64,000 nt of DNA, taken from the NCBI GenBank assembly GCA_048886685.1, contig JBHLKM010000003.1:160001-224000 (forward strand), written 5' to 3'. The position numbers and the translations under genes were made by a program. The stretch is from Candidatus Hodarchaeota archaeon (GTDB lineage: Archaea > Asgardarchaeota > Lokiarchaeia > Sigyniarchaeales > SOKP01). Below are positions 50,996-57,148 of this stretch, one piece after another. A model generated the notes under the pieces. That model was not told the origin of the DNA, did not search any database, and saw only the letters and a program-made list of their open reading frames with translations. How positions within the stretch are numbered: the first letter of the stretch is position 1; each line of letters begins with the position of its first letter.

Positions 50996-53900
50996 ATGGT
51001 AAAGATCGTTGCCTCACTCAGAAATTTCCGTGATCGTATCAGAACCTCAATAAGTATAAAAACCCAAAATGTATTGTTTTTCTTCGCAATTTTTTTGGTT
51101 ATATTCTTAGCTATACTATTAAGGATTAGTCCAATAATTAGAGGCCCACGTTTAATTAAAGCTTTTGATCCTTGGATACAATGGTATAATGCAGAATATT
51201 TATCAGAACATTCTTTATATGAATACTTCTCATGGCATGATTTTAAGAGCTGGTATCCAAATGGATTTTACCGTGGAACTCTACGTCCAGGTTTGACCTT
51301 TACTGTTGTAATAATATATAAAATACTAACCTTTTTTGGTATTCCTATCTCTCTCTATGACATTTGCTATTTCTTCCCCGCAGTTATGGGAGGTTTAACA
51401 GTTTTAGTCATTTATTTCTTAGGAAAAGAAATTCTTGATCGAGGGACTGGATTAATTGCTGCTTTTTTCCTAGCCTTTAATCCGGGTTATATGCAACGTA
51501 CAATGGTAGGATTTTTTGATAATGAAACAATCGGCGTTTTTGCTTCTCTGTTGACATTTTTATTTCTTCTAAAAGCTATAAGAACTGGAAGATTTTTATA
51601 TTCCATTCTTAGTGGTCTTTCTTTAGGCTATTTGTCTCTAAGTTGGGGGGGGTATCAATTTGTGTATTTGATTATCCCACTACTATGTATTATATTAATC
51701 CTAATTGATAAATACAATGAAAATATACTAATTTCTTATGCTGTTGTTGAAGGAACTGGGTTGTTAATTTTCTCTTTATATACAGGTTTTAGATATGATG
51801 CTCTATTTTCAGATTTAGAAACAGGCGGCATTTTTCTATTTACTATTATTTTAATTATATTTCATATAATACAAACAAAAAGAGTGGAACACCCATCTTT
51901 ATATAAGAGTATATTAAATGCTGTAAAGTGGGGTTTTATACCCGTTTTTTTAATTGGTGCAATAATTATATGGACTGCTCCTGATCTGCTTCCTTTTGGT
52001 TTTGGTGCAAAATTTCAAACAATTCTTAACCCTTTATTTCGAGATGAAATAAGTCTAGTAGCTTCAGTTGCTGAACAGATGCCAAGTCCGTGGAGCGTTT
52101 TTTATTATAATACTTTGATTCCATTAGTTTTAACACCCCTTGGAGTTTATTTCTGCTTCAAAGTGTTAAATGCCCCAGAAATTTTTCTAATAACATTTGT
52201 AATCCTAATGTTTTATTTTACAGGGAGTATGATTCGGATCATATTAATATTTTCACCTGCAGTTTCTTTGATGGGTGCATATGGATTAGTAAGTGTATTA
52301 AAAATCTTTGGTAGCTTTTTAGGGGACAGGAGAGAAGGTATTAGTAGAAAACGCAAAAGACAATTAAAAGGCACAATTGGGAATTCTGAAATTCTTGCGA
52401 TTTTCATGATTGTTGGGTTTTTAGGAGTTGCTCAAATTGTTCATGCATCTGACATTTCGATTGACCAGTTTTCTTATACACAAATATCACCGGCTGGTGT
52501 TCTTCACGATTGGGAAGAATCTCTCATGTGGATGAGATCTAACTTAGAAGGAACGGATGTGGTTGTATCTTGGTGGGATTACGGCTATTGGCTTACCCCT
52601 ATCGGTAACGTGACCACAGTTAATGATAATGCCACCATGAATTCAACTAGAATTGGTTTAACGGGTATGGCTCTAATGCAGACCAATGAAATTTATAGTG
52701 CAAAAGCATTTCGTAGGTTGAAAGCAGATTATGTCTTAGTATACTTTGGATTAATGATTAGTGGCTTGGGTGGAGATGAAGGGAAATGGCCTTGGATGAT
52801 AAGAATTTGTAATGATAATTATGCAAGGTATAAAGCTCGTGGTATGGAGGAGGATAATTGGGGTGAAGATTTTGTATTTAATGAAAGTTCGTACCAAGAT
52901 CCCAATACCGGAAGAATGTGTCCTAATTGGTTTAATAGCCAGCTGGTTAAATTGATGTTTTCTTCGGCTCCTGAATTAGGATATTACCTGCCAACGAATC
53001 GGGATGAAGTACAGAGAGAAGATATAAGGTGGACCTATGTTAATACGATTAACAACGAAAATAATCCTACTTGTGAAGGTGGAGTATGGAAAGACTATAT
53101 CCCAGACAATGGATTATACGATTACAACATATTTATTCCCACATATATCTCATCTACAGGCTTAGTGAAACTTTTTAAACTTGACTATACAGTCTTAGAA
53201 TCAAGTTTTACAATACAAGAAGCGGAGGTTTTTGAAAACGGATATGCTACATTCAAACTCACGAATACTGGTACGAAAGATTTGACTATAAAAAGTGTAA
53301 AGATTAATGGAACTGATTATGATTTTGTGATAAGCAATAGTGCCGAAATTAATAAAATTGAGAATGGTGCTTCAGAGATGGTTTGGGTTGACATTAAATC
53401 GAAAGGTACAACTTTTCAAAAAAATGATGTAGTAAATATTGATGTAACTGCTGAATCGGTAGCATTACAAGGAAAAAAATATGAATTTTCAAATGCTACT
53501 AAAAATTTCTTTGTAAAAGTACCAGCACAAGGTGCTATAAAAATTAATAAAGAAAATAGTTCGATAATCCAAAAAGACCTTTTAACAACAGATATATATC
53601 TTGAAGTAGAAAACTACGGAGAATCGATTGAAGTCTTAGAAAGATTTTATTTAAACGAGGATACTATTGAAAATGAAATAAATTCTAATAATATTGAATA
53701 TCTTAGTGGTTCATCTATATTAAAACCAGGGGAAAAAGCAGACATATATATAAATGACATAAATGTTATTGATTTTGATTCTGTTGAGATTATGGGTACT
53801 AACTTGTATGTTTCTAAAATTGGGGTTGCAACCCCTAATAATGTAAGTGATGAGGTATTATTTAGCTCAACTCTGGAAAATTATTCGATCTCTATTTTGA

Positions 53901-54967
53901 GTGAAGAGAGGATTATTTCTCCTGAAGCTCTGCTAGCAATTAATAGTATTAAAAGAGTACACATTCCTGCTAATTTCAATTTCACTCATGGATTTACATA
54001 TGAGAATGAAAGTACAATCTTGAAAATTAATGTGAAAAATACTGGAGATATTGTATTTGGAATAGATTCAATTTATTTAACAGATTCTTTGATTGAAGTT
54101 GATTATGCAGATTTCTATACACAAAGTGGAAGCGTACTTTTGTATGAAAACCAAGAAGATTTTATAATTATTGATGCAACCAATTATGGTAATTTTGAGA
54201 TTAATGATGAAATACTAGTCTGTGTTACTGGAAGTTTTGGAATAACAGGTTCGGTAACATCAGATATAGGTTATATTCATACAGTTAAAGATGATCCAGA
54301 TATTCAAATAATTGAAAATATCGATGATATAATGACTTCTTTTATTTATGCTAATGAGACAGGGAAATTAGTAATTAAAAATACCGGAGATGAGCCTGTG
54401 ACCATTGATGATATCTATGTGAATTCCACTCTTGCTACAAATATAACATATCTCTCGGGAAAACCTTCTCTTGACATTCAAGAATGCGCAATTGTATCTT
54501 TTGACATTCCAGATTTAATGTTAAACAAATCAACCGAAATAATTGTGAATATTACAACTACTTCTACCGCTACAACTAGCGAGACTTTTAATGCTTATGT
54601 AGATCCAGCATATTATAGTCTTGTGATTGATGACGATGCAACTGAGGTAGATAACAATGCAAATATGACTTTATTATTTACAAATACCGGAAAGGCTAAT
54701 GTAACAATTGAATCCCTCTATGTAAATGATACTTATGTTCCGTTATCAAATATTTATGCTTATTTTAATAATACTTGGGTACCATTAACAAGTAGTAATA
54801 TATTAGCTTTTGAAATAGGCATTGGAGATACTATGGAATTAACCATCAGAGTTAATGATCTCGAAGTGATTACAGGTCTTACGATTAATGTTGATGATGA
54901 AGTAATAATCACTATACGAACTGAAGAGGGTCCTGAGATTATTCACGAAGAAATTGTAATTCCTTAG
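50996..54967 (+). CDS. aglB: Oligosaccharyltransferase AglB/STT3 with long C-terminal Ig-like repeat extension
   Basis: AFDPW, GFFDNE, ASVAEQ, SWWDYGY, DEGKWPWM motifs; about 590-aa beta-rich extension. Confidence 0.93.
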   Translation: MVKIVASLRNFRDRIRTSISIKTQNVLFFFAIFLVIFLAILLRISPIIRGPRLIKAFDPWIQWYNAEYLSEHSLYEYFSWHDFKSWYPNGFYRGTLRPGLTFTVVIIYKILTFFGIPISLYDICYFFPAVMGGLTVLVIYFLGKEILDRGTGLIAAFFLAFNPGYMQRTMVGFFDNETIGVFASLLTFLFLLKAIRTGRFLYSILSGLSLGYLSLSWGGYQFVYLIIPLLCIILILIDKYNENILISYAVVEGTGLLIFSLYTGFRYDALFSDLETGGIFLFTIILIIFHIIQTKRVEHPSLYKSILNAVKWGFIPVFLIGAIIIWTAPDLLPFGFGAKFQTILNPLFRDEISLVASVAEQMPSPWSVFYYNTLIPLVLTPLGVYFCFKVLNAPEIFLITFVILMFYFTGSMIRIILIFSPAVSLMGAYGLVSVLKIFGSFLGDRREGISRKRKRQLKGTIGNSEILAIFMIVGFLGVAQIVHASDISIDQFSYTQISPAGVLHDWEESLMWMRSNLEGTDVVVSWWDYGYWLTPIGNVTTVNDNATMNSTRIGLTGMALMQTNEIYSAKAFRRLKADYVLVYFGLMISGLGGDEGKWPWMIRICNDNYARYKARGMEEDNWGEDFVFNESSYQDPNTGRMCPNWFNSQLVKLMFSSAPELGYYLPTNRDEVQREDIRWTYVNTINNENNPTCEGGVWKDYIPDNGLYDYNIFIPTYISSTGLVKLFKLDYTVLESSFTIQEAEVFENGYATFKLTNTGTKDLTIKSVKINGTDYDFVISNSAEINKIENGASEMVWVDIKSKGTTFQKNDVVNIDVTAESVALQGKKYEFSNATKNFFVKVPAQGAIKINKENSSIIQKDLLTTDIYLEVENYGESIEVLERFYLNEDTIENEINSNNIEYLSGSSILKPGEKADIYINDINVIDFDSVEIMGTNLYVSKIGVATPNNVSDEVLFSSTLENYSISILSEERIISPEALLAINSIKRVHIPANFNFTHGFTYENESTILKINVKNTGDIVFGIDSIYLTDSLIEVDYADFYTQSGSVLLYENQEDFIIIDATNYGNFEINDEILVCVTGSFGITGSVTSDIGYIHTVKDDPDIQIIENIDDIMTSFIYANETGKLVIKNTGDEPVTIDDIYVNSTLATNITYLSGKPSLDIQECAIVSFDIPDLMLNKSTEIIVNITTTSTATTSETFNAYVDPAYYSLVIDDDATEVDNNANMTLLFTNTGKANVTIESLYVNDTYVPLSNIYAYFNNTWVPLTSSNILAFEIGIGDTMELTIRVNDLEVITGLTINVDDEVIITIRTEEGPEIIHEEIVIP

Positions 54968-55115: not shown

Positions 55116-57148
55116 ATGATTATGGATTTTCAATTACAAACTGAATATAAACCTGCAGGCGATCAACCTTTAGCTATTCAAACATTAACAGAGAATATTA
55201 GGAATGCTAAAAGTTTTCAAACCTTATTGGGCGCAACTGGGACAGGGAAAACATTTAGTATTGCTCAAATAATACAAGAAGTACAGAAACCAACATTAGT
55301 AATGTCTCCTAACAAAACTTTATGTGCCCAACTCTATAATGAGTTTAAAGAACTCTTTCCTGAAAATGCCGTTCACTACTTTGTCTCTTACTATGACTAT
55401 TATCAGCCAGAAAGAACATTTCATTAAGAAATTTTCTGGAAGCATACATGCCTGTTTCGGGGATGTACATAGAAAAAGACTTCAGTGTGAACGAGGAAAT
55501 AGAAAGATTACGATTGGCTGCTACTCACGCTATTAGGACAAGAAAAGATGTTATTATAGTCGCTTCTGTTTCATGCCTTTATGGAATTGGGAACCCAGAG
55601 GTTTGGACAGCAGTTTCTCTCAGTTTAGAAACAGGACAAACGATTAACCGGGGGGAAATATTGAAAAGGCTAATTAGCATTAATTATGAGCGAAACAATA
55701 TTGATTTTAAACCAGGCGTGGTAAGGGTAAGAGGAGACATTATAGATATATGGCCAGCATACTTAATTAATGCTTTACGGGTTTCGCTTTTTGGGGATGA
55801 GATTGAATCAATTCAAGAGATACATCCAATTTCGAGTGAAGTATTAAACGATTTACCTAATTGCCGAATTTTCCCTGCCACTCATTTCATCATTCCAGAA
55901 GAAAATAAAGTGAAAGCGCTTGAATCAATAGAGGTTGAATTAACTGATCAACTTGATAAATTTAAGAAAGAAAAAAAATATGCTGAAGCACAACGATTAG
56001 AAAGACGCATTAAATTTGATTTAGAAATGTTAAGAGAAATGGGGTGGTGCAAAGGTATAGAGAACTATTCTAGACATCTAGATGGAAGAGCACCCGGTTC
56101 TCCTCCTATGACATTAATTGACTACTTCCCAGAAGATTTCCTTATTGTCGTGGATGAATCTCATGTTTCAATCCCTCAAATTCATGGACAAATCGGGGGA
56201 GATAGATCTCGTAAGAAAAATCTTGTAGACTATGGGTGGCGTTTGCCAAGTGCCTACGATAATAGGCCACTTACTTTTGAGGAGTGGGAGAGTAAAATTA
56301 AATATACAATTTTCATGAGTGCTACTCCGGGAGATTATGAATTAGAGAAAAGTGGGGAAATTTCAGCAGAGCAAATAATTAGACCTACAGGTCTTGTAGA
56401 TCCTCAGGTTGAGGTTAGACCTGCGAAGAACCAAATTGATGATTTGTTAGGAGAAATTAGAAAAGTCGTAGACAATAACGGCAGGGTTTTAGTTACTACA
56501 CTTACTAAGAGGATGGCTGAAGATATAGCAGATTATTATTCTGAATTGGGAGTTAAAATAGAATACTTACACTCAGAAGTCGATACTGTGGAGAGATTTG
56601 AGATATTAAGGCAATTAAGAGATGGTACTTATGATGTTGTAGTAGGAATTAATCTTCTTCGAGAAGGATTAGATCTTCCTGAAGTGCAATTAGTTGCAAT
56701 CTTAGATGCTGACAAACTTGGATTTCTACGCGATACTCGTTCTTTAATTCAAACAATTGGAAGAGCCTCTAGAAATGTTGAAGGAAAAGCAATCTTATAC
56801 GGTGATAGAACCTCTATAGCAATGAAAGCGGCGATAGACGAAACAAATAGGAGAAGGAATAAACAGATTGCGTACAATGAGAAAAATGATATAACCCCTC
56901 AAACAATTAAGAAAAATATTCTAAAATCTTTATCAGAGGAAAAAGAATATAAAGAAAGAGAAGTAAAAAGATTAAAACAGAATGTTAAAGCAAAAATAGA
57001 TCAATTACAAGAGGAAGGAGATATTGAGATTGTGATTGAATATCTTGAGAATAAAATGTTTATGGCTGCAAAGGAACTTAGATTTGAGGATGCAGCATAT
57101 CTACGTGATAAAATTAAGGAAATACAAAAAGATTATAAAAAAACATAA
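55116..57148 (+). CDS. uvrB: Excinuclease ABC subunit UvrB, interrupted; predicted join(55116..55412,55442..57148), about 667 aa
   Basis: Part 1: [31 protein letters not shown]. Part 2: [45 protein letters not shown] tail. The frames are joined by removing 29 nt. Confidence 0.9.
55413..55441 (+). other. Candidate bulge-helix-bulge (BHB) intron in uvrB mRNA
   Basis: Central helix CCAG(55407-10)/CTGG(55436-39), 3-nt bulges AAA(55411-13) and AAG(55440-42), inner stem GAA-c-ATTTC/GAAATTTT; canonical cuts restore CAG CCA GAA GCA TAC (QPEAY). Confidence 0.75.

Follow-up and report, generated by a model that had tools for sequence, protein, structure and literature searches.

The interrupted uvrB locus

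The window, i.e., the whole 64,000-nt stretch of Asgard archaeal DNA analysed here, contains a uvrB gene that is interrupted by a 29-nt insert at 55413-55441 (+), between a Glu and an Ala codon (Table 1). An in-frame TAA is found inside the insert at 55425-55427, and in its unspliced form the gene consists of two open reading frames of 103 aa (55116-55427) and 566 aa (55448-57148). Deletion of 55413-55441 yields a single open frame of 667 aa with the QPE/AY motif restored, and four cut registers (55410-55413) give an identical UvrB because GAA is repeated at the insert ends. These features bear out the first-pass annotation of this DNA, which had described an insert with an in-frame stop at this position and had expected its excision to give QPEAY and a UvrB of about 667 aa; it also took the host for a probable Lokiarchaeon, and the close UvrB relatives are indeed named Promethearchaeota or Lokiarchaeota.

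The gene is single-copy, with no second uvrB in the genome, and uvrA (961 aa) and uvrC (613 aa) of the same genome are open frames. No record of the 566-aa product exists among database proteins, and among the 23 database relatives closest to exon 2, 17 are annotated as fragments of 564-567 aa. Directly upstream of uvrB lies a 1323-aa AglB/STT3 with a long C-terminal extension (window 50996-54967).

Table 1. Features of the interrupted uvrB gene, in window positions
Feature	Position	Strand	Remarks
uvrB exon 1	55116..55412	+	ORF, ResIII domain match, low dN relative to family-A kin
Exon strand of 4-bp central helix, CCAG (family B: CCGG)	55407..55410	+	
5' three-base bulge AA^A	55411..55413	+	Predicted cut after 55412; A-U pairs close the bulge in the naked-RNA prediction
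Putative intron, 29 nt	55413..55441	+	The insert is 30 nt long in each of the 10 further family-A sequences examined and 32 nt long in families B and C
Hairpin within the insert (core AUUUC/GAAAU, loop of 5 nt), holds in-frame TAA	55414..55435	+	
Intron strand of central helix, CTGG (family B: CCGG or CCGA)	55436..55439	+	
3' three-base bulge AA^G	55440..55442	+	Predicted cut after 55441
uvrB exon 2, 568 codons + stop	55442..57148	+	Truncated protein called from internal ATG 55448

Inserts in related genomes and selection on uvrB

A uvrB match was obtained in 142 of the 159 genomes of the class, and an insert at the same codon, counted when 20-45 nt long and at this exact codon, is present in eight of the 159, all belonging to one genus, as well as in nine metagenome contigs. 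These inserts are 29-32 nt long and fall into three dissimilar sequence families, namely family A (29-30 nt; G000, which is the genome of the window, G017, G090 and G101), family B (32 nt; G007, G019 and G087) and family C (32 nt; G009). A genome of another genus (G126; uvrB frame of 121 aa at G126:C120:4206-4328) does not match the insert pattern and was not counted, and a locus-level search for related loci returned mostly non-Asgard uvrB.

The insert interiors differ by family, and each forms a hairpin and ends with four exon-pairing bases and two spare bases. In the comparison of 10 uvrB alleles, the 4-bp helix is paired in 95% of the cells, and the whole structure is paired in 90% of the cells at slide 0 versus 22-40% at slides of 1-3. 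One helix pair is A-U in seven alleles and G-C in three, with the exon half being a Pro wobble base; this compensatory change goes back to a single event that family B inherited, and kin do not count as independent. The covariation that the first-pass annotation had suggested looking for in related genomes is thereby found, with the helix kept at the EndA register in all three families. The junction exon 9-mer is fixed within each insert family and varies freely among 37 intron-free alleles, only two of which contain CAGCCAGAA.

Among intron-bearing alleles, exon 2 has a dN/dS of 0.035-0.08 at a dS of 0.39-0.73 and exon 1 a dN of 0.009-0.053 at a dS of 0.21-1.0 (0.009-0.017 at 0.29-0.63 for the window against its family-A kin). 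Pairs of intron-free alleles give similar dN/dS values (0.056-0.113), and none of 16 uvrB alleles has a stop within the 460 spliced codons that were checked. The two halves, regarded as otherwise intact by the earlier annotation, are thus conserved and under purifying selection, and the ratio near 1 that it had named as the mark of a recent pseudogene is not what is observed. Given the purifying selection, the lack of stops and the open uvrA and uvrC frames, a functional protein is presumably made across the insert.

Fold and putative splice motif

The central helix CCAG/CUGG, already proposed from the window alone, is predicted with a pairing probability of 0.98-0.99 when 30-150 nt of flank are included and is stable in every context tried. 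The weak outer stem drawn with it (G55406-C55443, then UAU/AUA) is not predicted (P = 0.014 for G55406-C55443), and the structure as originally drawn has an energy of -0.3 kcal/mol versus -9.5 for the MFE. The two 3-nt bulges fared differently in part, as the EndA register is kept across families but the 5' bulge is closed in the predicted fold: its AAA pairs with the U run of the insert in the naked-RNA prediction (7-bp stem, P 0.99), and the form with an open 5' bulge lies 4 kcal/mol higher in the window's genome (P about 0.001). The form with an open 5' bulge and the intron-side helix is the MFE in the G007 allele, and alleles of the G019 type have a C-A mismatch in the helix and a helix probability of only 0.1.

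A canonical hBHBh' exon-exon helix is not found, as it is represented by the single G-C pair mentioned above and is absent in family B. On the modelled folds, the motif is a relaxed bulge-helix-bulge (BHB) without an exon-exon helix. Taken alone, the fold of the insert is not beyond chance (z -1.6), so the case for an intron rests on the comparison among relatives, in which cutting after base 2 of each 3-nt bulge restores QPE/AY in 16/16 tabulated alleles, including those without the junction repeat. An Rfam search of the inserts gave no match, and a promoter scan remained at chance level.

Other inserts in the genome

The first-pass annotation also suspected that other apparently frameshifted genes hide such introns, and a genome census agrees with this. 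The census was motif-free: proteins from 2.8 of 3.34 Mb of a second genome of the same genus (G005) were aligned to the window's genome, and the reverse, and inserts were located by homology. All well-aligned frame-breaking inserts within 24-45 nt turned out to be 29-34 nt long, eight in the window's genome and six in G005 (one duplicate; 13 distinct). At least three helix pairs together with a constrained energy of -3 kcal/mol or lower were found in 12 of these 14 inserts versus six of 157 ordinary in-frame indels; given that this threshold was set after the candidates had been viewed, we take the size of the gap and not a P value from it. Both bulges start with A in 11/14 frame-breaking inserts versus 25/157 in-frame indels.

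When the census, end scans and a motif scan are combined, the tally in the window's genome comes to about 18 inserts, each 29-37 nt long, spread over about 16 coding loci. The interrupted loci are uvrB, cdhA, thioredoxin, pfk (two inserts and a partial duplicate), a GH38 hydrolase, acetoacetate-CoA ligase, gamma carbonic anhydrase, an Fe-S oxidoreductase, dnaG, thiolase (two inserts, 16-nt exon), a proteasome chaperone, purA, cobO and two small proteins; for purA and cobO, motif restoration was judged only from what we take to be the features of these families. The interrupted purA and dnaG are both single-copy, exon 1 comprises only 8-20 codons in other interrupted genes, and the inserts fall in all three codon phases. 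Several of the curated inserts split a codon without a junction repeat, and the 15 curated inserts have no mutual similarity of the kind expected from a MITE-like repeat family, with the exception of the duplicated pfk.

A paralog-only census was insensitive, and the motif-only scan was too noisy (267 matches versus 234-264 in slid controls, with uvrB itself missed); its matches were retained only after a homology check. Candidate matching between the two genomes produced hundreds of false matches and was dropped, so introns common with G005 are under-counted.

Five distinct 30-nt BHB-type inserts in G005 lie in genes whose counterparts in the window's genome have no interruption (337488, 691071, 1505072 and 2599625 on the plus strand; 2089490 and 1410049 on the minus strand). 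The partial second pfk (G000 C16:51445 and C5:244202) carries the same 30-nt insert (93% identical), and this copy possibly reflects bin contamination (8.4%) or duplication. One candidate (C7:156246) was taken for an ordinary gene boundary and discarded, and a 38-nt motif-like gap between two GTPase-like frames (G000 C14:123033, minus strand), with a similar gap in G005, is an intron or a boundary. Within the uvrB insert, 19 nt (window 55417-55435) are identical to a sense coding stretch of another gene (G000 C16:87118-87136, minus strand); such a match was equalled in 8/3000 shuffles, or about 4% after the 15 inserts tested, and is either chance or a donor.

Splicing machinery and proposed mechanism

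The genome encodes two EndA paralogues, located in the regions of C18:52942 and C5:74654, and one RtcB. EndA alpha (198 aa) has the Tyr/His/Lys catalytic triad and a crenarchaeal-type specificity loop ending in K-P-R, and among PDB entries it is matched best by 3p1z and 3ajv (E 5e-34), which we take to be Aeropyrum pernix structures. EndA beta (200 aa) is without the catalytic His and reads as a structural subunit. The loop residues K44, P45 and R46 have been tied to EndA cleavage of relaxed motifs (PMC12397907), and the K-P-R loop of the host enzyme agrees with the relaxed motif of the uvrB insert. ARAGORN reported only 35 tRNA genes in this genome; many of them contain introns and several received odd calls (Stop, Pyl, ???), which suggests that non-canonical tRNA introns were missed; a tRNA-Sec was called on contig C1.

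Given that inserts of the same shape but different sequence occupy one site between conserved halves, the uvrB message is very probably spliced. With considerable confidence, we regard the insert as a short tRNA-type relaxed BHB intron of the EndA type known from cbf5, a reading that comes from sequence comparison and upholds the EndA/RtcB-type mRNA intron first proposed for this gene. The two-subunit EndA would cut after 55412 and after 55441, at base 2 of each bulge, once the weak A-U pairs at the 5' bulge had been opened, and RtcB would then ligate the exons into the message for the 667-aa UvrB, while unspliced RNA would give a 103-aa dead-end product. Most likely, the insertion is tolerated and has persisted because it is spliced out by the host. 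The parallel with HAC1/XBP1 drawn by the first-pass annotation holds for the ligation step but not for the cutting enzyme, as HAC1/XBP1 introns are cut by IRE1 and not by a tRNA endonuclease.

Alternative explanations

Ribosomal bypassing, an artefact and a pseudogene all fit the insert poorly. Translational bypassing as in T4 gene 60 or the Magnusiomyces byps, in which the ribosome would take off at GAA 55410-12, skip the hairpin and land on the GAA at the insert end with the RNA left uncut, is suggested by the window allele, where a short hairpin insert, absent from the predicted protein, is preceded by GAA and has this codon at its end as well. The matched codons are not conserved, however: the last codon is non-Glu (GAT, AAA, AAG, GAC) in four of the 10 distinct uvrB inserts and GAG in another, and matched take-off and landing codons are possible in only 3/15 curated inserts of the genome. 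The T4 model also needs a stop directly after the take-off codon (PMC8211752), whereas the first stop here follows after 2, 5 or 21 codons and is never adjacent. An exon/intron helix at the EndA register is not expected under bypassing either, and we hold this reading to be very unlikely. An assembly artefact is the least credible reading and can practically be set aside; the window allele is one base shorter than all its family-A kin inside a T run, which may be a homopolymer error, but homologous inserts are present in independent GTDB, JGI, ENA and Logan assemblies.

That a fold-back or template-switch insertion, consisting of an inverted CCAGAA copy and a GAA duplication, inactivated uvrB is as improbable as bypassing. 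An inverted copy of the upstream exon does stand at the end of the insert, along with a 3-nt direct repeat, and intron-free patches appear to have replaced the insert in some kin, but the selection on both exons (dN/dS 0.035-0.08 at dS up to 0.73) largely refutes a pseudogene, no further stops have accumulated, uvrA and uvrC are open in a genome with no other uvrB, and families B and C do not retain the direct repeat. Fold-back could nevertheless be the first origin of the intron. The same slight chance is given to a split gene whose 103-aa and 566-aa pieces are made separately, the latter from a restart at ATG 55448, and then associate. Gene callers annotate such a form, and the in-frame ATG lies 6 nt into exon 2; its Met, however, also occurs as an ordinary residue in intron-free UvrB (AYMP), with Leu taking its place in others. 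According to the alignment, the break would sit in the base of the damage-verifying beta-hairpin, which together with Tyr96 has a role in damage verification by UvrB (PMC5053424), and the first piece would end in a tail of unrelated residues whose length (1, 4 or 20) varies by family. A split gene also leaves the helix and the 8-20-codon first exons of the other genes unexplained.

Probable gain and loss of inserts at the uvrB site

The uvrB tree places families A and B as sisters (support 97) with C apart, which points to two or three gains in one genus. Intron-free alleles nest within family A. The intron-free SRR14865925 and the intron-bearing ERZ23498673 are 99-100% identical in exon 2 and 75% identical over the last 60 nt of exon 1, and three intron-free alleles on different backgrounds have in common a patch of ~33 nt just upstream of the junction (L364, L375 and L176 versus L374 and L175) that includes a Ser TCT to AGT change and resembles the intron-free G093. 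From this common exon-1 patch, we infer that the intron was lost when a short patch from an intron-free donor recombined into the gene, and not through reverse transcription of the cell's own mRNA. On these alignments, the intron appears to have been lost several times in this way, and its repeated replacement by intron-free patches means that the insert may carry a cost. Database proteins were also searched for products of spliced cDNA; all close relatives that span the junction fell in with intron-free genomic alleles, and the two whose contigs were examined both have the intron-free exon-1 patch.

Open uvrB frames of ~1200 aa are found in G093 (L177), G003:C107 and G116:C100; that of G093 holds an intein-like insert ending in HN before TFTIAQ, at the Walker A motif and ~155 nt upstream of the intron site.

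Relation to known systems and implications

A BHB intron in pre-mRNA is known from cbf5 of Desulfurococcales and Sulfolobales (Watanabe 2002; Yoshinari 2006; Yokobori 2009, PMC2738675), which has been given as the only archaeal coding sequence with such an intron (PMC7714728, PMC2738675). The uvrB case resembles cbf5 in that a short intron lies within a conserved coding motif with an unconventional BHB at its borders, the cuts fall between bases 2 and 3 of the bulges, the EndA is hetero-oligomeric, and gain and loss are lineage-specific. It differs in phylum, in that the gene is a bacterial-type DNA-repair helicase, in being one of about 18 such inserts in its genome and in having dissimilar inserts at one site; splicing has been shown for cbf5, whereas that of uvrB is something we infer. 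In Haloferax volcanii, the 5' UTR of HVO_1309 harbors a 46-nt BHB intron (Schwarz 2020, PMC7714728). Its mRNA is a substrate of the tRNA splicing endonuclease, as that of uvrB would be, but its intron lies outside the reading frame, whereas the production of UvrB would need splicing. Asgard tRNA genes have been described to contain short BHB-bordered intervening sequences that, like the uvrB inserts, were gained more than once and in the presence of two EndA paralogues (bioRxiv 10.64898/2026.10.13.758758); that study covers tRNA genes only ('mRNA' is absent from its text), and its focal families belong to other classes. The first-pass annotation knew of no BHB intron in uvrB, and our literature search, which left most subscription papers outside, likewise gave no report of introns in uvrB or in Asgard mRNAs.

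We think it likely that the tRNA-splicing machinery is a routine mRNA-splicing system of this genus, on which tens of protein genes per genome depend (among them the single-copy uvrB, purA and dnaG), and that introns of ~30 nt keep arriving at favored sites where the exon supplies half a helix and are purged by short-patch recombination. Given that intron-plus and intron-minus uvrB alleles occur on backgrounds 99% identical in exon 2, gain and loss are directly testable. Should the messages indeed be spliced, many mRNAs undergo splicing in Asgard archaea and the corresponding proteins are truncated in public annotations, which distorts metabolic reconstructions (cdhA, pfk, purA). A routine mRNA-splicing system of this kind would amount to a non-spliceosomal exon-intron gene structure with ongoing turnover in archaeal relatives of eukaryotes.
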